From Squalus acanthias (lineage: Eukaryota): DNA of 64,000 nt. The number at the start of each line of letters is the position of its first letter. The first letter of the stretch is position 1. This document shows, in pieces, positions 1 through 59,299 of the stretch. Position numbers and translations under genes: made by a program. The stretch covers positions 2,604,001 to 2,668,000 of the forward strand of contig JASTWF010000034.1 in the NCBI GenBank assembly GCA_030390025.1, in the 5' to 3' direction. Below the pieces are notes generated by a model. That model ran no database searches, was not told the DNA's origin, and saw only the letters and a list, made by a program, of their open reading frames with translations.

Positions 1-3000
1 CTGTCTCTTTAAAAGCACTGTGTGCCTGGTTCTGTCTCTTTAAAAAGCCTGTGTGACTGGTCCTGTCTCTTTAAAACGCCTGTGTGACTGCTAACGTCTC
101 TTTAAAAAGCCTGTATCACTGGTACTGTCTCTTTAAAAAGCCTGTGTGGCTGGTGCTTTCTCTTTAAAATGCTGTGTGACTGGTCCTCTCTCTTTAAAAG
201 GACAGTGTGACTAGTCCTGTCTCTTTAAAAGGACTGTGTGACTGGTTCTGTTTCTTTAAAAAGACTGTGTGACTGGTTCTGTCTCTTTAAAAAGCCTGTG
301 TGACTGGTCCTGTCTCTTTAAAAAGCCTGTGTGTATAGTGCTGTCTCTTTAAAAATTATGTGTGACTGGTCCTGTCTCTTTAAAAAGTCTGTGTGACGGG
401 CCCTGTCTCTTTAAAAAGCCTGTGTGAATAGTGCTGTCTCTTTAAAAATTATGTGTGACTGGTCCTGTCTCTTCAAAAAGCCTGTGTGACTGGTTCTGTC
501 TCTTTAAAAAGCCTGTGTGACTGGTCCTGTCTCTTTAAAAAGCCTGTGTGAATAGTGCTGTCTCTTTAAAAATTATGTGTGACTAGTCCTGTCTCTTTAA
601 AAAGCCTGTGTGACTGGTCCTATCTCTTTAAAAAGTATGTGTGACGGGCCCTGTCTGTTTATAATACCAGTGTCACTGGTCCTGTCTCTTTAAATAGCCT
701 GTGTGACTGGTCCTGTCTCTTTAAAAGCACTGTGTGCCTGGTTCTGTCTCTTTAAAAAGCCTGTGTGACTGGTCCTGTCTCTTTAAAACGCCTGTGTGAC
801 TGCTAACGTCTCTTTAAAAAGCCTGTATCACTGGTACTGTCTCTTTAAAAAGCCTGTGTGGCTGGTGCTTTCTCTTTAAAATGCTGTGTGACTGGTCCTC
901 TCTCTTTAAAAGGACTGTGTGACTAGTCCTGTCTCTTTAAAAGGACTGTGTGACTGGTTCTGTTTCTTTAAAAAGACTGTGTGACTGGTTCTGTCTCTTT
1001 AAAAAGCCTGTGTGACTGGTCCTGTCTCTTTAAAAGGACTGTGTGACTGGTTCTGTCTCTTTAAAAAGCCTGTGTGACTGGTCCTGTCTGTTTAAAAAAA
1101 CTGTGTCACTGGTCCTGTTTCTTTAAAAAGCCTGTGTGAATAGTGCTGTCTCTTTAAAAATTATGTGTGACTGGTCCTGTCTCTTCAAAAAGCCTGTGTG
1201 ACTGGTTCTGTCTCTTTAAAAAGCCTGTGTGACTGGTCCTGTCTCTTTAAAAAGCCTGTGTGAATAGTGCTGTCTCTTTAAAAATTATGTGTGACTGGTC
1301 CTGTCTCTTTAAAAAGCCTGTGTGACTGGTCCTGTCTCTTTAAAAAGTCTGTGTGACGGGCCCTGTCTCTTTATAATACCAGTGTCACTGGTCCTGTCTC
1401 TTTAAATATCCTGTGTGACCGGTCCTGTTTCTTTAAAAAGACTGTGTGACTGGTGCTGTCTCTTTAAAAGGACTTTGTGACTGGTTCTGTCTCTTTAAAA
1501 AGCCTGTGTGACTGATCCTGTCTCTTTAAAAAGCCTGTGTGACTGGTCCTGTCTCTTCAAAAAACCTGTGTGACCGGTCATGTCTCTTTAAAATGCCTGT
1601 GTGACCGGTGCTGTCTCTTTAAAAATTCTGTGTGACTGGTCCTGTATCTTTAAAAAGCCTGCGTGACTGGTTCTGTCTCTTTAAAAAGCCTGTGTGACTG
1701 ATCCTGTCTCTTTAAAAAGCCTGTGTGACTGGTCCTGTCTCTTCAAAAAACCTGTGTGACCGGTCATGTCTCTTCGAAAAGCCTGAGTGACAGGTGCTGA
1801 CTCTTTAAAAAGCCTGTGTCACTGGTCCTGTCTCTTTAAAAAGCCTGCGTGACTGGTTCTGACTCTTTAAAAAGCCTGTGTTACTGGTGCTGTGTATTTA
1901 AAAAGGCTGTGTGACTGGTTCTGTCTCTTTAAAAAGCATGTGTAACTGGTGCTGTTTCTTTAAAAAGCCTGTGTGACTGGTCCTGTATCTATAAAAAGCC
2001 TGTATGACTGGTCCTGTCTCTTTAAAAAGCCTGTGTGACTGGTCCTGTCTCTTTCAAAAGCCTGCGTGACTGGTCCTGTCTCTTTAAAACGCCTGTGTGA
2101 CTGCGAACGTCTCTTTAAAAAGCCTGTATCACTGGTACTGTCTCTTTAAAAAGCCTGTGTGGCTGGTGCTTTCTCTTTAAAATGCTGTGTGACTGGTCCT
2201 CTCTCTTTAAAAGGACTGTGTGACTAGTCATGTCTCTTTAAAAGGACTGTGTGACTGGTTCTGTTTCTTTAAAAAGACTGTGTGACTGGTGCTGTCTCTT
2301 TAAATACCTGTGTGACTGGTCCTGTCTCTTTAAAAGCACTGTGTGCCTGGTTCTGTCTCTTTAAAAAGCCTGTGTGACTGGTCCTGTCTCTTTAAAACGC
2401 CTGTGTGACTGCTAACGTCTCTTTAAAAAGCCTGTATCACTGGTACTGTCTCTTTAAAAAGCCTGTGTGGCTGGTGCTTTCTCTTTAAAATGCTGTGTGA
2501 CTGGTCCTCTCTCTTTAAAAGGACTGTGTGACTAGTCCTGTCTCTTTAAAAGGACTGTGTGACTGGTTCTGTTTCTTTAAAAAGACTGTGTGACTGGTTC
2601 TGTCTCTTTAAAAAGCCTGTGTGACTGGTCCTGTCTCTTTAAAAAGCCTGTGTGTATAGTGCTGTCTCTTTAAAAATTATGTGTGACTGGTCCTGTCTCT
2701 TTAAAAAGTCTGTGTGACGGGCCCTGTCTCTTTATAATACCAGTGTCACTGGTCCTGTCTTTTTAAATATCCTGTGTGACCGGTCCTGTTTCTTTAAAAA
2801 GACTGTGTGGCTGGTGCTGTCTCTTTAAAAGGACTTTGTGACTGGTTCTGTCTCTTTAAAAAGCCTGTGTGACTGGTGCTGTCTCTTTAAATACCTGTGT
2901 GACTGGTCCTGTCTCTTTAAAAGGACTGTGTGACTGGTTCTGTCTCTTTAAAAAGCCTGTGTGACTGGTCCTGTCTCTTTAAAAAAACTGTGTCACTGGT

Positions 3001-6000
3001 CCTGTTTCTTTAAGAAGCCTGTGTGACTGGTCCTGTCTCTTCAAAAAACCTGTGTGACTGGTCCTGTCTCTTTAAAATGCCTGTGTGACCGGTGCTGTCT
3101 CTTTAAAAATCCTGTGTGACTGGTCCTGTCTCTTTAAAAAAAGCTGTGTGACTGGTCCTGTCTCTTTAAAAAAACTGTGTCACTGGTCCTGTTTCTTTAA
3201 AAAGCCTGTGTGAATAGTGCTGTCTCTTTAAAAATTATGTGTGACTGGTCCTGTCTCTTCAAAAAGCCTGTGTGACTGGTTCTGTCTCTTTAAAAAGCCT
3301 GTGTGACTGGTCCTGTCTCTTTAAAAAGCCTGTGTGAATAGTGCTGTCTCTTTAAAAATTATGTGTGACTGGTCCTGTCTCTTTAAAAAGCCTGTGTGAC
3401 TGGTCCTGTCTCTTTAAAAAGTCTGTGTGACGGGCCCTGTCTCTTTATAATACCAGTGTCACTGGTCCTGTCTCTTTAAATATCCTGTGTGACCGGTCCT
3501 GTTTCTTTAAAAAGACTGTGTGACTGGTGCTGTCTCTTTAAAAGGACTTTGTGACTGGTTCTGTCTCTTTAAAAAGCCTGTGTGACTGATCCTGTCTCTT
3601 TAAAAAGCCTGTGTGACTGGTCTTGTCTCTTCAAAAAACCTGTGTGACCGGTCATGTCTCTTTAAAATGCCTGTGTGACCGGTGCTGTCTCTTTAAAAAT
3701 TCTGTGTGACTGGTCCTGTATCTTTAAAAAGCCTGCGTGACTGGTCCTGTCTCTTCAAAAAACCTGTGTGACCGGTCATGTCTCTTCGAAAAGCCTGAGT
3801 GACAGGTGCTGACTCTTTAAAAAGCCTGTGTCACTGGTCCTGTCTCTTTAAAAAGCCTGCGTGACTGGTTCTGACTCTTTAAAAAGCCTGTGTTACTGGT
3901 GCTGTGTATTTAAAAAGGCTGTGTGACTGGTTCTGTCTCTTTAAAAAGCATGTGTAACTGGTGCTGTTTCTTTAAAAAGCCTGTGTGACTGGTCCTGTAT
4001 CTATAAAAAGCCTGTATGACTGGTCCTGTCTCTTTAAAAAGCCTGTGTGACTGGTCCTGTCTCTTTCAAAAGCCTGCGTGACTGGTCCTGTCTCTTTAAA
4101 AAGCCTGTGTGTATAGTGCTGTCTCTTTAAAAATTATGTGTGACTGGTCCTGTCTCTTTAAAAAGTCTGTGTGACGGGCCCTGTCTCTTTATAATACCAG
4201 TGTCACTGGTCCTGTCTTTTTAAATATCCTGTGTGACCGGTCCTGTTTCTTTAAAAAGACTGTGTGGCTGGTGCTGTCTCTTTAAAAGGACTTTGTGACT
4301 GGTTCTGTCTCTTTAAAAGGCCTGTGTGACTGGTGCTGTCTCTTTAAAAAGCCTGTGTGACTGGTCCTGTCTCTTCAAAAAACCTGTGTGACCGGTCATG
4401 TCTCTTTAAAATGCCTGTGTGACCGGTGCTGTCTCTTTAAAAATTCTGTGTGACTGGTCCTGTATCTTTAAAAAGCCTGCGTGACTGGTTCTGTCTCTTT
4501 AAAAAGCCTGTGTGACTGATCCTGTCTCTTTAAAAAGCCTGTGTGACTGGTCCTGTCTCTTCAAAAAACCTGTGTGACCGGTCATGTCTCTTCGAAAAGC
4601 CTGAGTGACAGGTGCTGACTCTTTAAAAAGCCTGTGTCACTGGTCCTGTCTCTTTAAAAAGCTTGCGTGACTGGTTCTGACTCTTTAAAAAGCCTGTGTT
4701 ACTGGTGCTGTGTATTTAAAAAGGCTGTGTGACTGGTTCTGTCTCTTTAAAAAGCATGTGTAACTGGTGCTGTTTCTTTAAAAAGCCTGTGTGACTGGTC
4801 CTGTATCTATAAAAAGCCTGTATGACTGGTCCTGTCTCTTTAAAAAGCCTGTGTGACTGGTCCTGTCTCTTTCAAAAGCCTGCGTGACTGGTCCTGTCTC
4901 TTTAAAACGCCTGTGTGACTGCTAACGTCTCTTTAAAAAGCCTGTATCACTGGTACTGTCTCTTTAAAAAGCCTGTGTGGCTGGTGCTTTCTCTTTAAAA
5001 GGCTGTGTGACTGGTCCTCTCTCTTTAAAAGGACTGTGTGACTAGTCATGTCTCTTTAAAAGGACTGTGTGACTGGTTCTGTTTCTTTAAAAAGACTGTG
5101 TGACTGGTGCTGTCTCTTTAAATACCTGTGTGACTGGTCCTGTCTCTTTAAAAGCACTGTGTGCCTGGTTCTGTCTCTTTAAAAAGCCTGTGTGACTGGT
5201 CCTGTCTCTTTAAAACGCCTGTGTGACTGCTAACGTCTCTTTAAAAAGCCTGTATCACTGGTACTGTCTCTTTAAAAAGCCTGTGTGGCTGGTGCTTTCT
5301 CTTTAAAATGCTGTGTGACTGGTCCTCTCTCTTTAAAAGGACTGTGTGACTAGTCCTGTCTCTTTAAAAGGACTGTGTGACTGGTTCTGTTTCTTTAAAA
5401 AGACTGTGTGACTGGTTCTGTCTCTTTAAAAAGCCTGTGTGACTGGTCCTGTCTCTTTAAAAAGCCTGTGTGTATAGTGCTGTCTCTTTAAAAATTATGT
5501 GTGACTGGTCCTGTCTCTTTAAAAAGTCTGTGTGACGGGCCCTGTCTCTTTATAATACCAGTGTCACTGGTCCTGTCTTTTTAAATATCCTGTGTGACCG
5601 GTCCTGTTTCTTTAAAAAGACTGTGTGGCTGGTGCTGTCTCTTTAAAAGGACTTTGTGACTTGTTCTGTCTCTTTAAAAAGCCTGTGTGACTGGTGCTGT
5701 CTCTTTAAATACCTGTGTGACTGGTCCTGTCTCTTTAAAAGGACTGTGTGACTGGTTCTGTCTCTTTAAAAAGCCTGTGTGACTGGTCCTGTCTCTTTAA
5801 AAAAACTGTGTCACTGGTCCTGTTTCTTTAAGAAGCCTGTGTGACTGGTCCTGTCTCTTCAAAAAACCTGTGTGACTGGTCCTGTCTCTTTAAAATGCCT
5901 GTGTGACCGGTGCTGTCTCTTTAAAAATCCTGTGTGACTGGTCCTGTCTCTTTAAAAAAAGCTGTGTGACTGGTCCTGTCTCTTTAAAAAAACTGTGTCA

Positions 6001-9000
6001 CTGGTCCTGTTTCTTTAAAAAGCCTGTGTGAATAGTGCTGTCTCTTTAAAAATTATGTGTGACTGGTCCTGTCTCTTCAAAAAGCCTGTGTGACTGGTTC
6101 TGTCTCTTTAAAAAGCCTGTGTGACTGGTCCTGTCTCTTTAAAAAGCCTGTGTGAATAGTGCTGTCTCTTTAAAAATTATGTGTGACTGGTCCTGTCTCT
6201 TTAAAAAGCCTGTGTGACTGGTCCTGTCTCTTTAAAAAGTCTGTGTGACGGGCCCTGTCTCTTTATAATACCAGTGTCACTGGTCCTGTCTCTTTAAATA
6301 TCCTGTGTGACCGGTCCTGTTTCTTTAAAAAGACTGTGTGACTGGTGCTGTCTCTTTAAAAGGACTTTGTGACTGGTTCTGTCTCTTTAAAAAGCCTGTG
6401 TGACTGATCCTGTCTCTTTAAAAAGCCTGTGTGACTGGTCTTGTCTCTTCAAAAAACCTGTGTGACCGGTCATGTCTCTTTAAAATGCCTGTGTGACCGG
6501 TGCTGTCTCTTTAAAAATTCTGTGTGACTGGTCCTGTATCTTTAAAAAGCCTGCGTGACTGGTTCTGTCTCTTTAAAAAGCCTGTGTGACTGATCCTGTC
6601 TCTTTAAAAAGCCTGTGTGACTGGTCCTGTCTCTTCAAAAAACCTGTGTGACCGGTCATGTCTCTTCGAAAAGCCTGAGTGACAGGTGCTGACTCTTTAA
6701 AAAGCCTGTGTCACTGGTCCTGTCTCTTTAAAAAGCCTGCGTGACTGGTTCTGACTCTTTAAAAAGCCTGTGTTACTGGTGCTGTGTATTTAAAAAGGCT
6801 GTGTGACTGGTTCTGTCTCTTTAAAAAGCATGTGTAACTGGTGCTGTTTCTTTAAAAAGCCTGTGTGACTGGTCCTGTATCTATAAAAAGCCTGTATGAC
6901 TGGTCCTGTCTCTTTAAAAAGCCTGTGTGACTGGTCCTGTCTCTTTCAAAAGCCTGCGTGACTGGTCCTGTCTCTTTAAAAAGCCTGTGTGTATAGTGCT
7001 GTCTCTTTAAAAATTATGTGTGACTGGTCCTGTCTCTTTAAAAAGTCTGTGTGACGGGCCCTGTCTCTTTATAATACCAGTGTCACTGGTCCTGTCTTTT
7101 TAAATATCCTGTGTGACCGGTCCTGTTTCTTTAAAAAGACTGTGTGGCTGGTGCTGTCTCTTTAAAAGGACTTTGTGACTGGTTCTGTCTCTTTAAAAGG
7201 CCTGTGTGACTGGTGCTGTCTCTTTAAATACCTGTGTGACTGGTCCTGTCTCTTTAAAAGGACTGTGTGACTGGTTCTGTCTCTTTAAAAAGCCTGTGTG
7301 ACTGGTCCTGTCTCTTTAAAAAAACTGTGTCACTGGTCCTGTTTCTTTAAAAAGCCTGTGTGAATCGTGCTGTCTCTTTAAAAATTATGTGTGACTGGTC
7401 CTGTCTCTTCAAAAAGCCTGTGTGACTGGTTCTGTCTCTTTAAAAAGCCTGTGTGACTGGTCCTGTCTCTTTAAAAAGCCTGTGTGAATAGTGCTGTCTC
7501 TTTAAAAATTATGTGTGACTGGTCCTGTCTCTTTAAAAAGCCTGTGTGACTGGTCCTGTCTCTTTAAAAAGTCTGTGTGACGGGCCCTGTCTCTTTATAA
7601 TACCAGTGTCACTGGTCCTGTCTCTTTAAATATCCTGTGTGACCGGTCCTGTTTCTTTAAAAAGACTGTGTGACTGGTGCTGTCTCTTTGAAAGGACTTT
7701 GTGACTGGTTCTGTCTCTTTAAAAAGCCTGTGTGACTGATCCTGTCTCTTTAAAAAGCCTGTGTGACTGGTCCTGTCTCTTCAAAAAACCTGTGTGACCG
7801 GTCATGTCTCTTTAAAATGCCTGTGTGACCGGTGCTGTCTCTTTAAAAATTCTGTGTGACTGGTCCTGTATCTTTAAAAAGCCTGCGTGACTGGTTCTGT
7901 CTCTTTAAAAAGCCTGTGTGACTGATCCTGTCTCTTTAAAAAGCCTGTGTGACTGGTCCTGTCTCTTCAAAAAACCTGTGTGACCGGTCATGTCTCTTCG
8001 AAAAGCCTGAGTGACAGGTGCTGACTCTTTAAAAAGCCTGTGTCACTGGTCCTGTCTCTTTAAAAAGCCTGCGTGACTGGTTCTGACTCTTTAAAAAGCC
8101 TGTGTTACTGGTGCTGTGTATTTAAAAAGGCTGTGTGACTGGTTCTGTCTCTTTAAAAAGCATGTGTAACTGGTGCTGTTTCTTTAAAAAGCCTGTGTGA
8201 CTGGTCCTGTATCTATAAAAAGCCTGTATGACTGGTCCTGTCTCTTTAAACAGCCTGTGTGACTGGTCCTGTCTCTTTCAAAAGCCTGCGTGACTGGTCC
8301 TGTCTCTTTAAAACGCCTGTGTGACTGCTAACGTCTCTTTAAAAAGCCTGTATCACTGGTACTGTCTCTTTAAAAAGCCTGTGTGGCTGGTGCTTTCTCT
8401 TTAAAATGCTGTGTGACTGGTCCTCTCTCTTTAAAAGGACTGTGTGACTAGTCATGTCTCTTTAAAAGGACTGTGTGACTGGTTCTGTTTCTTTAAAAAG
8501 ACTGTGTGACTGGTTCTGTCTCTTTAAAAAGCCTGTGTGACTGGTCCTGTCTCTTTAAAAAGCCTGTGTGTATAGTGCTGTCTCTTTAAAAATTATGTGT
8601 GACTGGTCCTGTCTCTTTAAAAAGTCTGTGTGACGGGCCCTGTCTCTTTATAATACCAGTGTCACTGGTCCTGTCTTTTTAAATATCCTGTGTGACCGGT
8701 CCTGTTTCTTTAAAAAGACTGTGTGGCTGGTGCTGTCTCTTTAAAAGGACTTTGTGACTGGTTCTGTCTCTTTAAAAAGCCTGTGTGACTGGTGCTGTCT
8801 CTTTAAATACCTGTGTGACTGGTCCTGTCTCTTTAAAAAGCCTGTGTGACTGGTCCTGTCTCTTTAAAAAAACTGTGTCACTGGTCCTGTTTCTTTAAGA
8901 AGCCTGTGTGACTGGTCCTGTCTCTTCAAAAAACCTGTGTGACTGGTCCTGTCTCTTTAAAATGCCTGTGTGACCGGTGCTGTCTCTTTAAAAATCCTGT

Positions 9001-9250
9001 GTGACTGGTCCTGTCTCTTTAAAAAAAGCTGTGTGACTGTTCCTGTCTCTTTAAAAAGCCTGTGCGACTGATCCTGTCTCTTTAAAAAACCTGCGTCACT
9101 GGTCCTGTCTCTTTAAAAAGCCTGTGTGACTGGTCCTGTCTCTTTAAAAAAAGCTGTGTCTCTGGTCCTGTCTCTTTAAAAAGCCTGTGTGACTGGTGCT
9201 TTCTCTTTATTAAGCCTGTGTCACTGGTCCTGTCTGTTTAAAAAGCCTGT
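1..9250. repeat. Satellite array of a 31-bp monomer (CTGTCTCTTTAAAAAGCCTGTGTGACTGGTC), about 300 copies, open at the window start
   Basis: Monomer starts at 1, 32, 63 and so on (period 31). Rare variants (TGCTAACGTC, TTTATAATACCAG) recur in fixed order, and there is a block repeat at an offset of about 2818 bp (2343 vs 5161). Confidence 0.98.
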
Positions 9251-9806
9251 AATGCATGTCCTGCCTCTTTAAAATTCTTGTGTGAATGGTTCTGTGTCAC
9301 TGGCTGTGGCTCCGCCCTCTTGTTTTGGTTTTCATTGCATGTCATACAATTAAGAAGAGCCAGAATGGATTTTTTTTTAAACAGGGGACCATGGATTTTG
9401 GATCCACAAGGGTGTTGATGTTGCAGGATTACTGAGACTATTTCTTTGACACTGAACCGGATTCACTGAGTTACGGAGAAACCTTTGCTGGAAAAGTGGT
9501 GTTAAGAATTGAAGCTCTAGGCCTAGAAATCCGTCATTGACTGCAGTGGAGCTGAATATCAGGCACTTAGTGTAACAGGCACCCGATCCGATACCGCCCG
9601 TTTCGCGCCACCTCCCGAGACGAATTTCTCGGCCTTTGAATGCAGTCATCGGCAGATATCAAATGACACAGCGTGCTTATGAATTGGACTAAGACTTTGC
9701 CTCTTAAAAGTTCGGCTTGAACCGATTCATAGTCATTTGTTATCTTCCGAGGCAGATTGCTCGAGGGGTGGGGAGATATAAGAGTTAATTCTAAAATTAA
9801 TTACAA

Positions 9807-9950
9807 GCATTTCTGTCTCATCCAAAACTCTCCTTTCCGTGTCTTAATTCGCACCAAGTCCCGTTCACCCATCGCCCCTGTGCTCACTGATCTACATTGG
9901 CTCCCGGTCTGGCAATGCCTAAATTTTAAAATTCTCATCCTCGTGTTCAG
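9807..9950 (+). mobile_element. L2 LINE 3' ORF2 fragment
   Basis: Translates to LIQNS..RVLIRTKSRSPIAPVLTDLHWLPV...FKILILVF, the typical L2 ORF2 C-terminal motif. Confidence 0.85.
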
Positions 9951-10124
9951 CCCTAACTCATTGACAAATGTCCAGTAAAGTATTTGCATCCTGAAAATGC
10001 CAAACGTTAGTTTATTTATGTTTAGTATTTTAACGTAAGTACGTTTCATCCCCAGGGCTACAGGTGGATTTCTACAATTGGCATCATGGGGACAAGAGGC
10101 ACAGGGGAGGGGCGAGAATTCTGC

Positions 10125-10805
10125 TCAGACTGCAGCACACAACACCATCATCTCCAATTTCCGCCTTCAAGTCACACACCATCCAGACTTGAACATTATT
10201 TTTATTCATTCACCGGATGTGAGCGTCCCTGGCAAGGCCAGCACTTATTGTCCATCGCTAATTGCCCTTGAGAAGGTGGTGCTGAGCCGCCTTATATAAC
10301 TGAGTGGCTTGCTAGGCCATTTCAGAGGGCACTTAAGAGTGAAACACATTGCTCTGGGTCTGGAGTTACATTTCGACAGACCGGGTAAGGACGGCAGATT
10401 TCCTTCCCTAAAGGACATGAGTGAACCAGATGGGTTTTTACGACAATCCGGCAGTTTCATGGTCACCATTACTGATGGTAGCTTTTTATTTTTTATTTTT
10501 ATTAATTGAATTTAAATTCCCCAGCTGCCGTGGTGATTTAAACTCATGTCTCTGGACCATTTGTCCGGTCATCTGATTTTCTAGTCCAGCAACTGAACCA
10601 CTATGCTACCGTACCCTTCAAATATATCGCCGTTCCTTCATCGTCACTGGGACAAAAGCATGAAATTCCTTCCGTAACAGTATTGTGCGAGCAGCTTCAG
10701 CACATGGACTGCAGCGGCTAAAGATGAAAGGCCCACCATTTTCTCATGGGTAACTAGTGATGGGCAAGTAATTTCGGCCTTACAGCGTCACCCATATCCT
10801 GAGAA
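10125..10805 (+). mobile_element. 3' end fragment of the LINE family seen at 49885-51620, interrupted by a SINE
   Basis: CAAGTCACACACCATCC..ACTT and ATATCGCC.TTCCTTCATCGTC.CTGGG match 51395-51600. Confidence 0.75.
10195..10616 (-). mobile_element. tRNA-derived SINE with a LINE-derived 3' tail
   Basis: The minus strand begins GGGTACGGTAGCATAGTGGTT (A-box-like) with a B-box-like GAGTTTAAATC. Its tail (CACCACCTTCTCAAGGGCAATTAG.GATGG.CAATAA.TGCTGGCCTTGCCAG) matches the LINE 3' end at 51520-51620. Confidence 0.8.
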
Positions 10806-10839
10806 CAAATAGATAGAAAGAATACAATCAATGATTTTG

Positions 10840-11740
10840 TAATTCATTGATTGAACCTAGGCGAGGCCTGTGATCATAGTTAGGCGTCATGCTCCGCTAA
10901 ACAAATTGTGTCACAACTTGGCTCACCAATTCTATGATTATATGATTGTTACCGCCCATACTTTCCCAATTGCTCTATCCTTTAAAATGGTGCTTTGAAA
11001 GTACCACATACCAAAATTGAAGCCCATGGGATTAATGTGACAGTGGCAACAGGGCTCGGAAATTGGCTAATAGACAGAACGCAGAGAATAGTGGTGAACG
11101 GTTGTTTTTCCGACTCAGTATAGAGTGGTGTTCCCCAGGGGTCGGTGTTGGGATCATTGCTCCTTTCATGTATATCAATGCTATGGACTTGGGTACACAG
11201 CGCATAATTTCAAAGTTTGAAGATGAAAGGAAATTCGGAAATGTTAATAAACAGTGAGAATGATAGAAACAGATCTGAGGAGGACATACACAGACTAGTG
11301 AAATGGGCAGACACATGGCAGATACAATTTAACGCAGAGAAGGGCGAAGTGATACATGTTGGTAGGAAGGATGAGCAGAGGTAATATAAACTAAACGGTA
11401 CAATTTTAAAGCGGGTGCACGGTCAGAGGCACCTGGGGTGTACTAACACAAACCATTGAAGGTGGCAAGACAAGTCGCGATGGCTGTTAATCAAACATAC
11501 GGAGTCCTTGGCTTTACAAACAGAGACATAGAGTAACAAAATCCAGGTAGTAATGCTAACCTTTTAAACATTATTGGTTCGGCCCCAGCTGGAGTGTTGT
11601 GTCCACCACACTTTGACAAGCATGTCAAGGATTAAAGAGGGGTGGAGGAGATTTTCCAGAATGGTGCCAGGGATCTGGGACTTCAGTTACGTGGAGAGAC
11701 TGGAGAAGCTGGGATTGTTCTTTTTAGAGCAGCGAAGGTT
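10840..11740 (+). mobile_element. CR1 LINE RT fragment, decayed
   Basis: Remnants of SGVPQGSVLG, ISKFEDE (FADD) and VRPQLECCV, with stops and frameshifts. Confidence 0.85.
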
Positions 11741-11744
11741 AAGA

Positions 11745-14545: not shown

Positions 14546-14895
14546 GGGGAGATTTAATATAGATGTTCAAAATTATGATGGGTTTTGATAGAGTTTCCAG
14601 AGCCAGAATGGTGGGTAACTAGAGGAAACATATTTAAATTGGCAAAAGAAACAGAGGAGAGATGAGGAGAATTTCATTACGCAGTGAGTTGTTATGATCT
14701 GCAATTCACTGTCTGGGAACGTGGTGGAAGCAGATTCAACAGTAACTTTCGAAAGGGAATGGGATAATTAGATGAAGGAGACATTTTCACAGGGCTCTGA
14801 TTAAAGTACAGGACTAAATTGATAACTCTTTCAAAGAGACGGCATGGACATGATGGGCTGAATAGCCTCTGTCTGTGCTGTACCGTTCTATGAGC
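14545..14895 (+). mobile_element. CR1 3' end fragment
   Basis: GDLI..FKIM.GFDRV coding remnant, then the 3' UTR GGGCTGAATAGCCTC..CTGTGCTGTA and a TTCTATG tail. Confidence 0.8.
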
Positions 14896-15074
14896 AAGAG
14901 ACAGAGAGAGAGAAAAGGGGGAGAGAGAGAAAGGGAGAAAGAGAGAAAAAAACCGAAAGACAGGGAGAGGTTAAGAGGGGAATAAATTAATTTTGAAAGG
15001 GCAATTGGATAGATACCTGAAGGGGAACAATTTGCAGGACTATGGGAAAAGAGCAGGGGAATGCGACTAATTGC

Positions 15075-15500
15075 AGGGTTGAGGCCACGGTGGAATTTGA
15101 ACATAAGGATGAGATTATTAAAATCGAGGTGTTGCTGGATCGGGAGCCAATGTAGGTCAGTGATTCAGGAGTGAAGGGTGAACGGGACTTTTGCGTGTTT
15201 GGGTATGTGCAGCAGAGTTTTGGATGAGCTCTACTTTATGGAGGCTTGTAACTGGGTGGCCGGCCAGGAAAACATTGGAATAATCGAGTCTGAATTTAAT
15301 AAAGGCACGGATGGGGGTTTTCGCAGCGGTAGGGCTGAGGTGGAGCGGACACGCGTGATATTTTGGAGGTAATAGTAGACAGGACTGGTGATTCAGAGGA
15401 TCTGAGGTCGGAACTCAGCTCAGGGACAAAGAGATCGCAGAGCTTGCAAACAGTCTGGTTCAGTCTCAGACTTTGGCCAGGGAGGGGGACTGAATCGGTA
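15075..15500 (-). mobile_element. L2 LINE fragment
   Basis: The reverse complement encodes RLNQTVCKL..F.PELS and LHWLPIQQHLDF-like L2 motifs; paralogous to 47180-47470. Confidence 0.7.
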
Positions 15501-15822
15501 GAGAACGAAGATTGTGACGAGGAGCAAGGATATTGGCTTTGTTCTTCCCAAGATTTAAATGACAAAAACAGTAATACAGTGAAACGTGGTTTACAGATCT
15601 AATAGCTGGATGTAGAGTCTTACCAGGAACACCAACAGGACCAAGGATGAGAGAGTAACTTATATGAACAGTAATACGGTTACAAAAGTTTGCAGAGTTA
15701 ATAGCTGGATACAGAGACTTAGTTCGAACAACAAACGCAACAAGGACGGAAGAGTAAATGACAAGAACAGTAAAGCAGTAAAACATGGTTTATAGAATTA
15801 ATAGCTGGATAGATAGACTTAC

Positions 15823-16003
15823 CAGGAACACCTACAGCAGCAAGCAGGGGATAGTAAATGTACTGAATAATCAGAAGTGCGTAATAGATCCGACTCTGTA
15901 ATGATAAACTATCATAATAGGCAGAAAGATAGTCAAACTGCCAGGAGAAACTCCTGCCCATTGTTGTAACATTCCAATCAACTGTTTTCAGATTCCAATC
16001 CAT
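15823..16003 (-). CDS. Exon 1 (N-terminus and TM1 start) of GPR139/GPR142-like orphan GPCR, paralog A; exon 2 predicted beyond the window start
   Basis: ATG at 16003 (second ATG at 15961). Encodes MDWNLKTVDWNVTTMGRSFSWQFDYLSAYYDSLSLQSRIYYALLIIQYIYYPLLAAVGVP and ends at the phase-1 donor G|GTAAGT. It is 181 nt, the same length as paralog B exon 1. Confidence 0.8.
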
Positions 16004-16119
16004 TGTTGCAGCATTCCAATCTACAGTACTCAGATTCCGACTCCCTCTCGGTGGAGCAGCGCGCTGATCCCTGTTAGTGCCGGAGGTGATGCTCTCACTG
16101 ACACTATGGGATAACACAT

Positions 16120-16285
16120 TGAAAGGAGTCCCTTATTAATAGAAGAGGGAAAGCCTGCACTGGCACAATTACAGTCCATGGAGACTGACATTATTTGCAG
16201 TCACTGAACAAACAGCTTCAGTTAACCCGTGGAGACTGGCATTAATTACAGTCACTGAAAAGACAGCTTCAGTTAACCCCTTTCA
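16120..16285 (-). promoter_or_regulatory. Putative proximal promoter of GPCR A: TATA-like TATTAATA plus a duplicated unit of about 50 bp
   Basis: TATTAATA lies about 130 bp upstream of the ATG. There are two copies of GGAGACTG.CATTA.TT.CAGTCACTGAA.A.ACAGCTTCAGTTAACCC, highly conserved with 48000-48160. Confidence 0.5.
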
Positions 16286-16324
16286 ATCCAGCACTTTTTG
16301 TACCACAGTAAAGTAGAATATTTA

Positions 16325-18155
16325 CCCGGTCTGGATGGGATGTATGAGGGTTGCGGAGTGAAGGAATGTTGGAAATAGCACAGGCTCTGGCCAGAATCTT
16401 TCAATCCTCCTTGGATATGGGAGTGGTGCCGGAGGACACTCTGTTTAGAAGAGGAGAGAGTGATAAACCCCGTAACTGCAGGCCAGTCAGCCTAATGTCG
16501 TCGGTGGGGAAAATTCTGGACGACATAATCCGGGACAAAATTATCTGTCATTTGGAAAAACATGGATGAATAAATGACAACCAGCACAGACAGTTTTAAA
16601 GTCAACGTCTGTCTGACAAACCTGATTAATTTTTTTTTGAGGAGGTATCATGGAGGGTAGATGAGGGTAGTGCGTTTGAAGTAGTATATATGGACTTTGG
16701 CAAGGCTTTTGATAAGGTTCCACATGGCAGAATGGTCACGAAGTTAAAAGCCCATGGGATCCAGGGCAAAGTGTCAAGGTGGATTCAAAACTGGCTCGGA
16801 GACATGAAGCAGAGGGTGATGGTTGATGGGTCTTTTTGTAACTGGAAGGCTGTTTCCAGTGGGGTTCCGCAGGGCTCAGTCCTAGTTCATTTGCTTTTTG
16901 TGGTATGTATCTACGATCTAGACTTGAATATAGGGGGTATGATTAAGAAGTTTGCAGATGATACTAAAATCGCCTGTGTGGTTTATATTGAAGAAGGAAG
17001 CTGTAGACTGAAGGAAGATATCAATAAATTGGTCAGGTGGGCAGAACAGTGGCAAATGGAATTCAATCCGGAGAAGTGTGAGGTAATGCATTTGGGGAGG
17101 GCTAACAAGTAAAGGGAATATGCATTAAATGGTAGGACACTGAGTAGTGTAGAGGAACAAAGGGACCTTGGAGTGCATGTCCTCAGATCCCTGAAGGTAG
17201 CAGTCCAGGTCGATAAGGTGGTTAAGAAGGCATACGGAATGATTGCCTGTATTAGCCGTGGCACAGAATACAAGAGCAGGGGGGTTATGCCTCAATTGTA
17301 TAAAAACACTAGTTAGGCCTCAGCTAGAGTACTGCGTGCAGTTCTGGTCACCACATTACAGGAAAGATTTGATTGCACGATAGAGGATACAGAGGAGATT
17401 TACAAGGATGTTGCCAGGAGCAGAGAATCTTAGCCATGAGGAAAGACTGGATAGGCTTGGTCTGTTTTCCTTGGAACAGAGGAGGCTGAGGGGAGACTTT
17501 ATTGAGGTGTATAAAATTATGAGGGGCTTAGAAAGACCCATTTTCCCTTAGCAGTGGGGTCAGATAGCAGGGGGCACAGATTTATAGTAATTGATAGAAG
17601 ATTTAGAGGGGATTTGAGGGGACATTTCTTCAGCCAGAAAGTTCACAGAATCCCCACAATGCAGATAGAGGCCATTTCGGCCCATCGAACCTGCACCGAC
17701 ACATATCCCACCCTATCCCCATAACCCCACGTATTTAATCCCCCTAACACTAAGGGTCAATTTATCATAGCCAAATCAACCTAACCCGCACATCTTTGGA
17801 CTGTGGGAGGAAACCCACGCAGACACGGGGAGAATATGCAAACTCCACACAGGCAGTCACCCGAGGCCGGATTCGAACCCGGGTCCCTGGTGCTGTGAGG
17901 TAACAATGCTAACCACTATGCCACCATGTTGCCTTTGTTGGGGTCTGGAACTCACTGCCTGAAAGGGTGGTAGAGTCAGGAACCTAACCACATTTAAAAA
18001 GTACTTGGATGTGCACTTAGGATGCTCTAACCTGCAGGGCTACGGAGCAAGAGCTGGGAAGTGGGGTTAGGCTGGATAGCTCTTTGTTGGCCGGCGCGGA
18101 CACGATGGGCCAAAATGGCCTCCTTCCGTGCTGTCACTTTCTATGATTCTATGAT
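16325..18155 (+). mobile_element. CR1 LINE RT and 3' end, interrupted by a V-SINE
   Basis: ORF 16690-17112 reads MDFGKAFDKVPH...SGVPQGSVL...KFADDTK, followed by a (CTATGATT)n tail. Confidence 0.92.
17643..17933 (-). mobile_element. V-SINE (HE1-like, elasmobranch)
   Basis: tRNA-like head GGTGGCATAGTGGTTAGCA...GGTTCGAATCC, V-domain GTGTGGAGTTTGCATATTCTCCCCGTGTCTGCGTGGGTTTCCTCC and a CR1-like tail. Confidence 0.88.
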
Positions 18156-34637: not shown

Positions 34638-35539
34638 TCATGATTTAATGAACTTTACAATCAGAGTAAAGGGATATTTCCCCACAATCTTCAACTGCTC
34701 TCTGAACTTAGTCTGGGTCACGGCATAAATCCCAGTGTTTGTGCAGCAACTCAGCAGCTGCAGCATGAATCCCAGTTCTTGTACATAAAAAGGTAGACAT
34801 ACAAGCTCAGACCCCAAATACGACAAGCGGTATGATATAGAATACACCGTAAACACTGCCCATAACAGGATGAAATTGCCCGAGATAACAAGCAGTAAAA
34901 TGATGGATTTCCTGCGGCTCTCCATCTCTGGATCCCTGGTACTCTCCCCACTACTGGGACCTCGGAGTCTCCTGCGGGCTCTGCTGGACACTGAAATGTG
35001 TCTGATGGTGACAGTATTGAGCAGCAGAATCACCACAAATGGGACCCCCGGGGTGAGAATATAATGAAGGAACTCGATTGCTACCCAGAACAGTGAGTAC
35101 ATTACATCGATTGTTACATCACAAAACCAGGGGAGGTTCTGAAGCCAATAGGAATCTGTCATCATGAAATACCAGGTGATATTCTTCAAACCGCTCACCA
35201 CAGTCACTGTTCCCAGAATCACAGCCGCCGTTTTCTCGGTGCAATGTTTAGTTTTCAGCTTCTGGCAACAAATGGCGACAAATCGATCAAAGGTGAAAGT
35301 GACGGTGAACCAGACAGAACAGTCTGTGGCTGAATAAAGCAGGACGGCGTGGATATTACACACGGGGATGGACCTCATGAAATCAAACTGTTCCATATAA
35401 AGAATCGGAATGTGCCTCAATATCAGATCGAGGATAATGACCAGTAGATCCGCCGCTGCCATGGCCACCAGGTAGCGAGTGATACATTTGGAGAGACCGC
35501 ACTTTCCCCGAGACAGGATCACAATCGTCACTAAGTTCA
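34638..35539 (-). CDS. Exon 2 of GPR139/GPR142-like orphan class A GPCR, paralog B (end of TM1 to C-terminus)
   Basis: Acceptor TTTATTTCCTTTCCTCGCAG| then an uninterrupted frame NLVTIVILSRGKCGLSKC..AMAAADLL..FTFDRFVAIC..TPGVPF..SGNFILLW..SCCTNTGIY, with TGA at 34638-34640. Splices in phase to the exon at 47700-47880. Confidence 0.93.
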
Positions 35540-36469: not shown

Positions 36470-38375
36470 CCAATTAAATAATTTCATTCCCAGGGCCGCC
36501 GAATTACACTGCTCCCGCCACAGTCCAGGAATTTCATTCCTAGGGCTGCCTAGATTACACTGCTCCCGCCTCAGTGCAGGAATTTCATTCCCAGGACAGC
36601 CTAGATTACACTGCTCCCGCCTCGTCCAGGAATTTCATTCCCAGGGTGCCTAGATTACATTGCTCCCGCCTCAGTCCATGAATTTCATTCCCAGGGCCAC
36701 CTAGATTACACTTCTCCCACCTGAATCCAGGAATTTCATTCCCAGGGCCACCTAAATTAAACTGCTCCCACCTCAATCCAGGAATTTCATTCCCAGGGCC
36801 ACCTAGATTACACTGCTCCCGCCTCAGTCCATGAATTTCATTCCGAGTGCCACCTAGATTACACTGCTCCAGCCTCAGTCCAGGAATTCCATTCCCAGGG
36901 CCACCTCGATTACACTGCTCCCACCTCAATTCGGGAATTTCTTTCCCAAGACTGCCGAGATTACACTGCTTCCGCCTCAGTCCAGGAATTTAATTTCCAG
37001 TGCCGCCTAGATTGCACTGCTCCCTCCAATGTCCTGGAATTTCATTCCCAGGACCATCTAGTTTAGACTGCTCCCGTCTCAGTCGAGGAATTTCATGCCA
37101 AGGCCAACCTAGATTGCACTGAATCCGCCTCAATACAGGATTTTCATTCCCAGGGCGGACTAGATTACACTGCTCCCGCCTCATTCCTGGAATGTCATTC
37201 CCAGGACCATCTAGTTTACACTGCTCCCGTGCCAGTCGAGGAATTTCATGCCAAGGCCAACCTAGATTACACTGCTTCCACATCAGTCCAGGAATTTAAT
37301 TCCCAGAGCCACCTAGATTAAACTGCTCCCACCTCAATCCAGGAATTTCATTCCCAGTGCCACCTAGATTACACTGCTCCCACCTCAATCCAGGAATTTA
37401 ATTCCCAGTGCCACCTAGATTACACTGCTCCCAACTCAGTTCATGAATTTCATTCGAGGGCCACCTTGATTAAACTGCTCCAGCCTCAGTCGAGGAATTC
37501 CATTCCCAGGGCCACCTAGGTTACACTGCTCCCACCTCAATTCGGTAATTTCATTGCCAAGACTGCCGAGATTACACTGCTCCCTCCTCAGTCCTGGAAT
37601 TTCATTCCCAGGACCATCTAGTTTACACTGCTCCCGTCTCAGTCGAGGAATTGCATGCCAAGGTCAACCTAGATTACACTGCTTCCGCCTCAGTCCAGGA
37701 ATTTCATTCCCAGGGCCACCTAGATTACACTGCTCCCGCCTCAGTCCTGGAATTTCATTCCCAGGGCCGCCTAGATTACACTGCTCCCGCCTCAGTCCTG
37801 GAATTTCATTCCCAGGGCTGCCTAGATTACACTGCTCCCGCCTCTATCCAGGAATTTCATTCCCAGGACCGCCTAGATTACACTGCTCCCGCCTCATTCG
37901 TGGAATTTCATTCCCAGTTCCGCCTAGATTACACTGCTCCCGCCTCAGTCCTGGAATTTCATTCCCAGGGCCACCTAGATTAAACTGCTCCCGCCTCAGT
38001 CCTGGAATTTCATTCTCAGGGCCACCGAGATTAAACTGCTCCCACCTAATTCCAGGAATTTCATTCCCAGTGATGCCCATGTTACTCTGCTCCAGCCTAA
38101 ATCCAGCAATTTCATTTCCGAGGAGCCTAGATTAACTGCTCCAGCCTCAGTCACGGAATTGCTTTGCCAGGGCTGCATTGAGTACACTGCTCCCGTCTCT
38201 GTACAGGAATTCAGTTCCCAGGGATGCCTTGATTACACTGCTCCCACCTCAGTCCAGGAATTTAATTCCCAGGGCTGCCTAGAGTACACTGCTCCCGCCT
38301 TAGTCCAGGAATGTTATTCCCATTGATGCCTATATTACTCTGCTCTCGCCTTAGTCCAAGAATTCAATTCCCAGT
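36470..38375. repeat. Intronic minisatellite, 51-bp unit (GGAATTTCATTCCCAGGGCCACCTAGATTACACTGCTCCCGCCTCAGTCCA), about 37 copies
   Basis: Direct 51-bp periodicity; the 17-aa repeat ORFs in the track reflect it. Confidence 0.97.
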
Positions 38376-39349: not shown

Positions 39350-40370
39350 TAAGAAAGAAAGAATTGCATTGATATAGCGCCTTTCACGATCTTGGGATGT
39401 GCCAATGCGCTTTACAATCAATGAAGAAATTTTGAAGTCTAGTCACTGTTGTACTGTACGAAACGTGGCAGCCAATTTGCGCACAGCAAGCTCCCACAAA
39501 CAGCAATGTGATCGTTGCCAGATAATCTGCTTTAGAGATGTTGATTGAGATAAATATTGGCCACAACACCGGGGTTAACTCTGCTGCTCTTCTTCGATAT
39601 ACATCCATGTGATTTTTTAGTCCACTTTAGAGAACAGACGGGGCCTCGGTTTAACGTCTCATCTGAAAGACGGCCCGCCCGACACTGCAGCGCTCCCTCA
39701 GTACCGCCCCTCCGACAGTGCAGCGCTACCTCAGTACTGACCCTCTGACAGTGCAGCGCTCCCTCAGTACTAACCCTCTGACAGTTCAGCGCTCCCTCAG
39801 TACTGACTCTCTGACAGTGCAGCGCTCCCTCAGTACTGACCGTATGACAGTGCAGCGCTCCGTCAGTACTGACCCTCTGACAGTACAGCGCGCCCTCAGT
39901 ACTGCCCCTCTGATAGTGCAGCGCTCCCTCAGTACTGCCCCTCTGACAGTGCAGCGATCCCTCACGACTGCCCCTCTGACAGTGCAACGCTCACTCAGTA
40001 CTTACCCTCTGACAGTACAGCGCTCCCTCAGTACTTCCCCACAGACAGTGCAACGCTCCCTCAGTACTGACCCTCTGTCAGTGCAGCGCTCCCTCAATAC
40101 TGCCCCTCTGACAGTGCAGCACTCCCTCAGTACTGCCCCTCTGACAGTGCAGCACTCCCTCAGTACTGCCCCACTGTCAGTGCAACGCTCCCTCAGTACT
40201 GACCCTCTGACAGTGCAGAACTCCCTCAGTACTGCCCTTCCCACACTGCAGTGATCCTTCAGTACTGCACTGCAGTGTTAGCCTAAATTTTTGTAATCAA
40301 GTCGGTGGAGTGGGCCTTGAACCCACGACATTTTGACTCAGAGCCGAGAGTGCTACTACCTGAGCCTACT
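39350..40370 (-). mobile_element. DeuSINE (same family as 18597-19058) with an internal minisatellite expansion
   Basis: 39350-39680 and 40265-40370 align with 18597-18925 and 18955-19058. Confidence 0.85.
39680..40270. repeat. 33-bp minisatellite (ACAGTGCAGCGCTCCCTCAGTACTGACCCTCTG), about 17 copies
   Basis: Direct 33-bp periodicity inside the SINE. Confidence 0.96.
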
Positions 40371-41159
40371 GAATCTGCTTCCACCAGACTTTCCGAATTC
40401 ATTGCAGGTCATAAAAACTCACTGCGTGACCAAAGTTCTTCTCATCTGCTCCCTGCTTCTTTTACCAATTATCTTATATATGTGCCATTTAGGTAATGAC
40501 AAGGCAAGTTCTGGAAACAGTTTCTCCTTTCTTACTGTTTCAAAATCCCTTTTCTTTCTGAACACTTCTATTCAATCTCCCCCAACCTTCTGTGTTATAA
40601 GGAGAACAATTCCAGCTTCTCTCGTCTGCCCACATAACTGAAATTCCTCAGCCCTGGTGTAATTACGGTAAATTCTCACCACACAAGTGGCAGAGGATGA
40701 CCACCCCCAACAAAAGGGAGTCTAACCTCTTCCACCTGACAGTCAACGGCAATTCCATCACCGAATCCTCCACCACAAAATCCTAGGGTCTCCATTGATC
40801 AGAAACTCAACTTGACCAGCCTCATAAATGCCGTGGCTACTAAAGCAGGTCAGAGGCTGGGTATTCTGCAGTGAGTAACTCACCTCCTGACTCCACAAAT
40901 CATCTCCAACAAGGCACAAGTCAAGAGTGTTCTGGATTACTGTCTGTAGACTGTGGTATGACTTGTGGGCAAGACCCTACCAATTCTATTAATTGTATTA
41001 AAAGATTTTCAATATTAAGGACACGTACACATATTACAACCAAATGTCTGCAAAATAATCAGGTTCTAAGCTGTCATATTCAGGACAAGATTAGAATCTG
41101 TAAATGAACATTTGTGACACCGCCCGAAAGAATATTCTAGGCCCTTTTGTTTGCAGCGT

Positions 41160-41320
41160 TTTGTCTCTTTAAAAATCCTGTGTGACTGGTCCTGTCTCTT
41201 TAAAAATCCTGTGTGACTGGTCCTGTCTCTTTAAAAAGCCTGTGTGACTGTTCCATTCTCTTTAATAAACCTGTGTGACTGGTCCTGCCTCTTTAAAAAG
41301 CCTGTATGAATGTTTCTGGG
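41160..41320. repeat. Five-copy array of the same 31-bp monomer as 1-9250
   Basis: TGTCTCTTTAAAAA.CCTGTGTGACTGGTCC five times, followed by the same unique flank as 9290-9780. Confidence 0.95.
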
Positions 41321-41794
41321 TCACTGACTGTGGCTCTGCCCTCTTGTTCAGCTGTTCATTGCATGCTATGAAGAAGAGACAGAATGGAGTTGTTTTTAAA
41401 CAGGGGACCATGGATTTTGGATCCACAGGGGTGTTGACGGTGCAGGATTACTGAAACTAGTTCTTTGACACTGAAGTGGCTTCACTGAGTTACGGAGAAA
41501 CCTTTGCTGGAAAAGTAGTGTTAAGGATTGAAGACCTAGGCCTAGAAATCCGTCATTGACTGCAGTGGAGCTGAATATCAGGCGCTGCGTGTAACTGGCG
41601 CCCGATCCGATACCGCCCGGTTAACGCCACCACCCGAGACACATTTCTCGGCCGTTGTCTGCAGACATTCGCAGATATCAAATGTCACAGCGTGCTGACG
41701 AATTGCACTATGACTTTGCCTCTCAAAGATTCGGCTTGAACCCATTCAGAGCCATTTGTTATCTTCCGAGACAGATTGCTCCAGGGGTGGGGGT

Positions 41795-42275
41795 AGAACA
41801 TAGAACATAGAACAGTACAGCACAGTACAGGCCCTTCGGTAGTCGATGTTGTGCCGAGCATTGTCCGAAACCAGGATCAAGCTATCCCACTCCCTATCAT
41901 TCTGGTGTGCTCCATGTGCTTATCCAATAACCGCTTGAAAGTTCCTAATGTGTCCGACTCCACTATCACAGCAGGCAGTCCATTTCACACCCCAACCACT
42001 CTCTGAGTAAAGAATCTACCTCGGACATCCCTTCTATATATCCCCCCATGCACCTTATAGTTATGCCCCCTTGTAACAGCTGCCTCTACCCGAGGAAATA
42101 GTCTCTGAACATCCACTCTATCTATCCCCCTCATCACCTTATAAACCTCTATTAAGTCGCCTCTCATCCTCCTCCGCTCTAAAGAGAAAAGCCCCAACTC
42201 CCTCAATCTTTCCTCATAAGACCTCCCCCCCAAAACCAGGCAGCATCCTGGTAAATCTCCTTTGCACTCTATCTA
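41795..42275 (-). mobile_element. Young 5'-truncated CR1 3' end
   Basis: Near-identical to 60700-61170; (TTCTATG)n tail; absent from copy A near 9775. Confidence 0.9.
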
Positions 42276-42599
42276 AAATTCACTAAAAGCATTTCAGTCT
42301 CATCCAAAACACGGCTGTCCGTGTCCTAACTCGCACCAAGCACCGTTCACCCATCACTCCTGTGCTCGCTGACCTACATTGGCTCCAAGTCCGGCAAAGC
42401 CTCGATTTTAAAATTCTCAACCTCATGCAGTGTTCTGGCAGCACCTTCACCACACAGACTGCAGCGATCAAGATGAAGGCGCACCATTTTCACATGGTTA
42501 ACTAGGGATGGGCAATTAGTACCAGCCTTGACAGTGTCACCAATATCCTGTGAACAAATGGATATAAATAATAAAATAGGAATACAATCAATGATTTTC

Positions 42600-54750: not shown

Positions 54751-54780
54751 CTCCTGCCCTAGTGTTTGGCCCAGGTCTAA

Positions 54781-56734: not shown

Positions 56735-57634
56735 CTGTCCAATAATCATATTATCTTGGTCCAAGTTATTAACACATTTTATTTGTTTATTTTACTCACT
56801 GAACCTCTTGATGGACCCTTTATTTCCCAATATAACGCTATGTCAAGCCCAAGTCAATTATATCATTTCAAAATTATCCCCAATCGAGCAAGCTGTGCTT
56901 TTGGACTGACAGGACTTCTTAATGCTCATTTTTATTTCGCCAACACTTTCTTTGTTGACACACAGCATTGGACAGGAACCACATAGACTGCCTTCCTCTC
57001 GTTTGTTTCAATGAAAATCAGCTTATCCCCTTAAACTCCAGGTAAATTTTCCACTCATGAGCGCATGAAACAGCCACTGATATCAATTTGTCTTACCATT
57101 TAAAACTTCAGAACCAAATGATGCCCATGCTTGATGGTATTAATTTAGAGACAGAAGTTTTTGGAATTATTTTGGGGTAACTTCCATATCTTCCCCCACT
57201 CGAGCACTCTGACTGGGATGATAACAGATGATCTTGACTTGGTTCAAGACAAGGCTTTGTAAAGCAAAGCCTTAAGTCCAAAACATCACCACGCTGTGAC
57301 ATTTGATGTCTGGCAATGTCTGCAGAGAAGGTCTTACATTTTTAAGTCTACTGGATCTCTTCCTCAACCAACAGTGTGTTTATAAGATCATGGTCCCCTG
57401 TATAAAAGAAAATAAAATCATAGAATACATTGTGGCTCCGCTTGAGAGCCCAAGGTGTTAATTTGTGAGTTCATGATTTCCTTCTGTCACCATGGGGAAA
57501 TATCCGCTCAAAATAAAATAAACTTCAAATTTAATAATACCCATTATATAAATGTACTTTCTGTAATACAAAAGTTGTTGCACGATGTATGGAAAACAGT
57601 TGTCAGTGGAAACTGTTAACTTCATTATATGTTT

Positions 57635-58545: not shown

Positions 58546-59299
58546 TGTCAGACGGTTATGCGCCCCTAAACGTGTTTTTTTAATACATTGCCGATAGAAA
58601 AATACCCAAACTCCAGTTTACTTTTTTCAAAGTCTTTCGACCTTGAAAACTTCCTCAGGAATTAACTCTTCGGTTAGTTAACACATCCAATTAAAAGCTG
58701 TCTCCAGATTCCTACCGCAGAGATTGAAGTTTCCACTTCAAATCATTAAATATTTGAGAAAACTTAAACGGCCAATTGTTATATGTGATGATCTCATGTC
58801 CGGAATTAGCGATCGCCCCATAGTTTACAATCAGCAGAATTTAATTGTGGCCACAATGAAACTCGGGTTCACGCCATTTAATCGGTTAGTGAACATCAAT
58901 AATTGCAACTTCTTTCAGTCCAATATTTTAGGAACTCTAAAATACTGAATATAACTGAAGAAAAAATTTGTCTCAACAAACTAAATCTTTGTAACATTTT
59001 TATACATTGAGAAAGAGCTGAAAGTCACGGCACTGGCACCAAAACATTCAGACAGGCTTTTTAAAGAGTCAGTCCGTCCGCTGAAAACAAAGGAACTCCT
59101 GCTGCTTGTGAGACTAGAAAGGAACAGAATCTGTCCCCTTCTGCTTCTTCATTCCATCATATTTACGGCCTTTTCTCTCAAACCAATTTACAAATTTCTG
59201 ATGATTGTTACTTAGCCCAATTTGGAATAACAGTCAATTGGAACCAAGCTGTTCTGTTTACCCTTCTGAGTCTTTTGAAATGGGACAAATCAATCAATT

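Follow-up and report, generated by a model that had tools for sequence, protein, structure and literature searches.

Beta-satellite arrays reportedly lie within a KRAB zinc-finger gene cluster at human 19p12, as Eichler and colleagues are said to have described in 1998, and beta satellite is said to have spread by duplication, in an account attributed to Cardone and colleagues (2004). The locus described here resembles that system in that a satellite is carried along as a large gene family duplicates in tandem. It differs in having a 31-bp unit, in its position within the intron of at least one gene and in the genes concerned, which encode GPCRs; no sequence relation to beta satellite is claimed.

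The library model of satellite evolution offers a second comparison. The accessible text of PMC10048060 presents this model, the divergence of array ends and the short arrays that abundant satellites form in euchromatin, and the accessible text of PMC12628747 presents single monomers, short arrays and growth by unequal exchange. As in the available part of PMC10048060, our monomer family is common to related organisms, copy number differs widely among loci, array ends are diverged, and single monomers, short arrays and long arrays coexist. What differs from that part of PMC10048060 is that all three states stand between homologous flanks in one 64-kb window (the whole stretch of DNA that was analysed). 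Sharks have small chromosomes rich in tandem repeats, according to the accessible text of 10.1101/2022.10.17.512540, in which a search by terms found no mention of the GPR139-like receptor family. A search of the literature on shark satellites and the GPR139 expansion, outside whose scope most subscription journals and supplements lay, found no description of the 31-bp monomer; an undescribed satellite in a shark genome is to be expected.

Three array states, with at least 300, five and one monomers between homologous flanks (copies A, B and C), occupy this window and can apparently be ordered. They provide a clear teaching case of satellite turnover with two datable amplification waves and, given the whole assembly, a system in which the direction and pace of change in an array could be tested. 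With moderate confidence, we favour the reading that an old satellite with a 31-bp unit belongs to a cassette present in many copies, made up of a left flank, n monomers and a right flank, which was duplicated along with GPR139-like genes, and that its length drifts by unequal exchange. The rival explanations considered below are not all mutually exclusive with this reading or with one another.

The largest array occupies the left edge of the window:

1..9291, forward strand: array A, at least 300 monomers of 31 bp, left end beyond the window; irregular higher-order blocks (49 segments in the block string) from 57-70 founder positions

9011..9291, forward strand: terminal nine monomers of array A, without a duplicate elsewhere in the array

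Array A is a satellite, a head-to-tail run of one monomer over 9.3 kb. Tandem Repeats Finder reports a period of 31 and 300.1 copies at 1-9295. Segmentation gives 300 monomers, the last ending at 9291, of which 67 are distinct and 38 equal the consensus, with a mean distance from consensus of 8.8%; the count is a minimum, as the array runs past the left window edge. The array is a mosaic of repeated blocks, whose 30 longest paired runs are 0-0.59% apart. In the best pair, two stretches of 49 monomers lie 91 monomers apart and differ by 1 mismatch, and all paired runs of at least four monomers together contain 65 mismatches in 573 paired monomers (0.37%). The longest exact run covers 28 monomers, where 500 shuffles reach at most 4. 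Array A thus has a higher-order block structure of the kind that arises from unequal exchange, irregular and not built on one fixed higher-order repeat. An assembly artefact was set aside as a probable source of this structure: the blocks differ by scattered single bases and their order is irregular. Four monomers folded as single-stranded DNA form a weak structure (-8.6 kcal/mol, equalled by 5 of 200 shuffles), so a hairpin-driven mechanism is not favoured.

Collapsing the blocks under five threshold settings leaves 57-70 founder positions, a 4.3-5.3-fold reduction. The founders differ by 15-16% pairwise and by 8.6-9.1% from the consensus, or by 13-14% and 7.3-7.9% when the A-run is left out.

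The gene context of the arrays is given by a pair of receptor genes:

34638..35539, reverse strand: exon 2 of GPR139-like gene B, 7tm_1, intact to the stop codon

47700..47838, reverse strand: exon 1 of GPR139-like gene B

41161..41315, forward strand: array B, five monomers

36480..38374, no strand assigned: tandem array of 37 copies of an unrelated 51-bp unit, within the intron of intact gene B

39681..40268, no strand assigned: unrelated 33-bp tandem array, 18 copies, in the intron of gene B

15823..15961, reverse strand: exon 1 of GPR139-like gene A, open frame, GT donor

15962..16330, reverse strand: upstream (promoter-side) region of gene A, 7.4% from that of B against 15.6% for the intron

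With two exons and an intron of 12,160 bp, gene B is intact and encodes a 7TM protein of 346 aa. It matches PF00001 (E 2e-20), and a homologue search returned 2584 matches among 3564 candidates; 119 of the 120 homologues listed, from four shark species and at 56-79% identity, are called 'probable G-protein coupled receptor 139'. By its 7tm_1 domain and its closest homologues, gene B classes as a predicted shark GPR139-like class A GPCR. It matches the shark expansion of that name, which is automatic (NCBI/UniRef); orthology to mammalian GPR139 would be putative. Two longer homologues, P0001 and P0002 (462 and 493 aa), outscore all others by about 100 bits, an excess that may reflect internal duplication in those receptor models.

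Array B is intronic, since gene B is intact and has an exon on either side: the earlier note had placed the short array inside this intron, and exons 47838-47700 and 35539-34638 do bracket it. That note had also described a 31-bp array of at least 9.2 kb and a five-monomer array in colinear paralogs, and this holds, with at least 300 monomers at 1-9291 and five at 41161-41315. The paralogs are colinear in six blocks running from 9296/41320 to 17515/49396 at 74-88% identity (self-BLAST), a span that includes exon 1 and the promoter. Their divergence is 7-19% in seven of the eight blocks measured. The introns differ at 728 of 4667 sites (15.6%), a pooled value from five intronic blocks of 11-17% that leaves out 16330-17515 versus 48230-49396 (30% diverged, LINE). 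Gene A, known from exon 1 only, is 73% identical to B there; at the nucleotide level 112 of 139 positions agree.

By colinearity with B, seen on one side, array A would also be intronic; the exon 2 of gene A and the left end of the array lie outside the window, within which tblastn found no second copy of exon 2. These same features, an array open at the window edge and an exon 2 absent from the window, could be read to mean that array A is the edge of a large satellite block and that gene A is truncated or separated from its exon 2. The depth of the monomer in public sequencing runs, which implies at least thousands of monomers per genome, also fits this explanation. We nevertheless consider it unlikely: exon 1 of A is open with an intact donor, and the upstream region of A is better conserved than the intron (27 of 366 sites differ from B, against 728 of 4667; P 6e-6), a pattern that fits constraint until recently, and gene conversion as well. 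In exon 1, which encodes the extracellular N-terminus, A and B differ by 19%, more than in the intron (15.6%) or the promoter (7.4%), and 19 of the 27 base differences fall in residue-changing codons.

The divergence of the paralog introns provides a scale for dating array A. The last 4-5-fold growth in A is far younger than the duplication, because its blocks are 0-0.6% apart and the introns 15.6%. This recent expansion is real: long after the duplication, blocks of up to about 50 monomers were copied at spacings such as 91 monomers, which multiplied the visible part of A 4-5-fold. The founders are as old as the duplication, as their pairwise differences of 15-16% and the 15.6% between A and B are equal within error. 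If monomers mutate at the flank rate, which is assumed, an array of about 60 units would have existed around the A/B duplication; step for step, the A lineage would have carried some 60-70 monomers at about that time. The same founder age, equal to that of the A/B split within error, could also fit amplification just after the duplication, which would count against our reading. The earlier note had proposed that A grew about 60-fold or more after the duplication. Recent growth by blocks bears out the direction of this claim (49 monomers, 1 mismatch), but its size does not stand, with 4.3-5.3-fold demonstrably recent and the remaining 12-fold not demonstrably post-duplication. A newborn satellite, in which all array diversity would be younger than the duplication, does not agree with founders of this age.

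The ends and flanks of the arrays offer a second line of comparison:

40960..41160, forward strand: left flank of array B, multi-copy in four of the four runs examined

41316..41792, forward strand: right flank of array B, including a piece of higher copy number from about 41555 to 41620 or 41650

9292..9773, forward strand: right flank of array A, homologous to 41316-41792, member of the multi-copy flank family

The right flanks align over 9296-9773 and 41320-41792 at 87.9% (E 3e-172, self-BLAST). The five monomers of array B, for which Tandem Repeats Finder gives 4.8 copies at 41162-41309, differ from the consensus at 2, 1, 1, 4 and 5 positions, and the last three monomers of A are degenerate (4, 7 and 6 differences), with variants in common with the last two of B. 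The array ends are homologous and not identical, as A has one extra terminal degenerate monomer. Of the 31 positions in the terminal monomer of B (B5), 10 and 5 differ from the last two monomers of A, respectively, and 3 differ from a composite that joins the left part of one to the right part of the other. The earlier note had the two arrays ending in the same degenerate monomer and flank; the flanks are indeed homologous, but the ends are related, not the same.

Further inward, B4 has two variants in common with monomer 298 of A (third from last), B2 is identical to A monomer 291 (at 8980), and B3 and A monomer 292 have in common a variant present in 1 of the 300 A monomers, so that the dimer B2-B3 matches A monomers 291-292 in two variants. 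Set in register, B equals the last ten monomers of A minus six. The B2-B3 and B4 matches may thus be read as a loss of five monomers from B or a gain of five in A, which is suggestive only, as register alone gives no direction.

At 9381 and 41400 (forward) and 57401 (reverse), a T-rich stretch, an AG and a start codon in good context stand together, with 13 bases exactly kept in the three copies. This block looks like a splice acceptor on the strand opposite the receptor. Three-frame translations found no long open frame after the block in the cassette flanks, and a hidden coding exon in the cassette is therefore not supported; four short frames (flank, copy C and both first exons) had no Pfam match.

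Public sequencing runs were used to place the cassette beyond the window. Part of 40950-41790 occurs in 18 of the 21 runs listed, from 10 studies, the best with 0.42 of its words; no RNA run is among them, which says nothing about expression. Four of these 18 runs, all of them contigs, with four organism labels from three studies (X3, X5, X11 and X13), were compared to 40900-41798 at 80% likeness. Peak summed depth over the monomers is 6.2, 0.25, 1.6 and 2.3 million, respectively, against 26-1936 in the adjoining flank bins. The monomer is therefore 10^3-10^4 times deeper than the flanks in all four runs, depth not being a copy number. Divided by 31 for contig overlap, depth gives 3,500-17,700 monomers per unit depth, or 137-529 per adjoining flank copy, as a rough bound. 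An abundant monomer common to related organisms, as a satellite library entails, was thus found in four of four runs, again with depth distinct from copy number. An exact monomer scan of metagenome_contigs and viral_contigs gave 0 matches.

Both flanks are multi-copy as well: leaving aside the higher-copy piece, each site is covered by anything from several to about 50 contigs. At 12 of the 19 right-flank sites listed A carries the other letter seen in the runs. In distinct contigs, 1 to 4.5 monomers adjoin right flanks that are 11-15% different from that of B, and in one X5 contig monomers are attached to a diverged left flank. Among the 15 joints shown, with 186 more beyond these, 13 go back inside the array and so lead to more monomers, and none removes monomers only. 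The contigs also show other in-phase arrays of at least 10 monomers, giving no lengths or positions for them, and strongly degenerate monomers unlike any of the 300 in A. Since contigs break inside arrays and no listed piece spans a whole cassette, depth and joints carry no per-locus length.

Two of the runs bear directly on array B. An X13 contig (record 9) carries 41192-41309, that is B2-B5, with other letters at 0 of 118 positions, followed by 38 letters and about 4.6 more in-phase monomers (about 6 in all); an X11 contig (record 2) carries 41186-41312 with other letters at 2 of 127. These runs hold 0.09-0.11 of the words of the stretch, about the share of the array itself, and almost no words of the B flanks. 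The array of B therefore has a near-identical partner in a longer array without the flanks of B. The presence of B2-B5 inside a longer array suggests that loci exchange sequence, or that the B lineage was amplified elsewhere, either of which would explain it.

These observations bear on the direction of change in B. According to the earlier note, long arrays in most paralogs and outgroups would imply contraction in B, and the evidence leans that way: the monomer is abundant, the flanks are multi-copy and B-type monomers occur in a longer array. We consider contraction in B at least as likely as old expansion in A. In our favoured reading, the five monomers of B would be what is left of the end of an array, shrinkage from a greater length being more likely than a seed that never grew. 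Most of the depth might instead come from one huge array at A or its orthologue, which would weaken this reading, and cassette copies other than A and B are placed in receptor genes only by assumption. The birth of a satellite at this paralog pair, the central proposal of the earlier note, does not survive: the founders are as old as the duplication, and the monomer is very abundant in four of four runs. A newborn satellite confined to one locus and its paralog is likewise at odds with multi-copy flanks, abundant monomers under four organism labels and a third copy in the window. The locus is a case of ordinary satellite turnover, by growth and shrinkage in a gene-family cassette, and not of satellite birth.

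The third copy is inverted and contains a single monomer:

59042..59072, reverse strand: single monomer of copy C, 29 of 31 positions identical to the terminal monomer of B (B5)

57189..57401, reverse strand: second block of copy C, the 13-mer at 57401 plus a 140-bp block

The homology of copy C rests on the monomer, the 13-mer block and the 140-bp block. The monomer match of 29/31 compares with a best of 24/31 in 200 shuffles of the non-array window, and 0 of 3000 shuffles reach the score of the 13-mer block. The 140-bp block (E 4e-22) is 22% from A and likewise from B, which are 13% apart there, and the monomer and second block follow in the same order and orientation as in A and B. The surroundings of the monomer match less well: a 13-mer to its left is modest (39 of 5000 shuffles), and the 100 bp to its right show a weak match to B, whose score is reached by 85 of 3000 shuffles, and none to A, where 2588 of 3000 do as well. 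By these distances, copy C is a putative outgroup to A and B with one monomer. Its single unit may predate amplification or be the residue of a collapsed array, and copy C is the best hint of the origin of the satellite, which it would place before the A/B split. In our favoured reading, a unique 31-mer like that of copy C would have been tandemly amplified after the split of C and before that of A and B.

Copy C would also polarise the series towards growth, a point against our reading and in favour of a tentative alternative, which we hold possible but distinctly less probable. Under this alternative, the A/B ancestor had few monomers, like B, and all expansion took place in A, with a first wave soon after the duplication and a second one later. 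The series of 1, 5 and 300+ monomers, with the outgroup at one, accords with such a history, as do founders that radiate from the consensus, B1-B3 within 1-2 bases of the consensus, and a founder depth of 7-9%, which is half of the A/B divergence (7.8%). It is harder to reconcile with the sequencing runs: long arrays are implied in all four, monomers of B type stand in a longer array in X13 and probably X11, and degenerate monomers unlike the 300 of A indicate that other old arrays exist.

Copy C raises the further question of mobility. The cassette could be a non-autonomous mobile element with an internal tandem repeat that spreads independently of receptor genes. Such carriers are known (PMC7492417, in its accessible text), both flanks are multi-copy, and copy C is inverted, adjoins a retroelement relic and has no visible receptor exon nearby; a search near it found no homologue of a receptor exon, promoter or exon 1. 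A/B homology, however, runs for 8 kb, through exon 1 and beyond, and flank depth is in the tens of units, not thousands. In addition, 40940-41800 has no bracketing terminal inverted repeat, its sole internal pair being 12 nt, although the true ends of the cassette are undefined. We therefore regard a mobile cassette as improbable. The relic beside copy C is integrase-like (about 59200-59760). A second region, 52071-55296 on the reverse strand, reads by eye as a broken LTR-retroelement or endogenous-retrovirus-like relic with gag-, RT-, RNase H- and integrase-like pieces; four fragments of it gave no Pfam match.

Our favoured reading treats the arrays as tolerated intronic DNA that would have no paralog-specific job, in keeping with the two other arrays in the intron of intact gene B. 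A functional alternative is that array length tunes or silences its paralog, through heterochromatin or slowed transcription across the intron. The evidence for it is precedent only: a longer VNTR with H3K9me3 goes with ZNF558 silencing, in the accessible part of 10.1101/2020.08.18.255562. The ZNF558 repeat described there is alike in that array length differs between lineages next to a member of a paralog pair. It differs in its 7.46-kb unit, its position downstream of the gene and its expression and chromatin data, where our comparison is of sequence. By analogy alone such a role would be conceivable, but several features make it very improbable. CpG observed/expected is 0.18 in the array and 0.49-0.50 in introns, 9.3 kb of array contain one sense-strand AATAAA and no ATTAAA, and the array lies 6.5 kb from exon 1 of a gene whose upstream region is conserved. 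Intact gene B carries 2.5 kb of other arrays, and satellite-filled introns can be transcribed (accessible text of PMC6508621). The locus would matter more only if array length controlled receptor expression. The most far-reaching reading combines a full origin series of a major shark satellite (one monomer in C, five in B, hundreds in A) with an array that acts as a length-variable chromatin switch, setting which of hundreds of receptor paralogs are expressed and reset by block exchange between paralogs (as in B2-B5); we consider it a very long shot, the least probable of the readings.

Further repeats mark the same region, in which Rfam had no match anywhere in the 64-kb window. A 26/52-bp CT-rich tandem array at 33145-33955 lies about 900 bp past the stop codon of B. 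The end of exon 1 and its splice donor are tandemly repeated, with a period of about 99 bp, just inside both introns (15556-15844 and 47475-47735), and these repeated ends are possible decoy donors. Two young insertions in the intron of B, 41799-42276 and 44969-45821, are absent from A and are 96% identical to 60702-61176 and 19954-20809, respectively.
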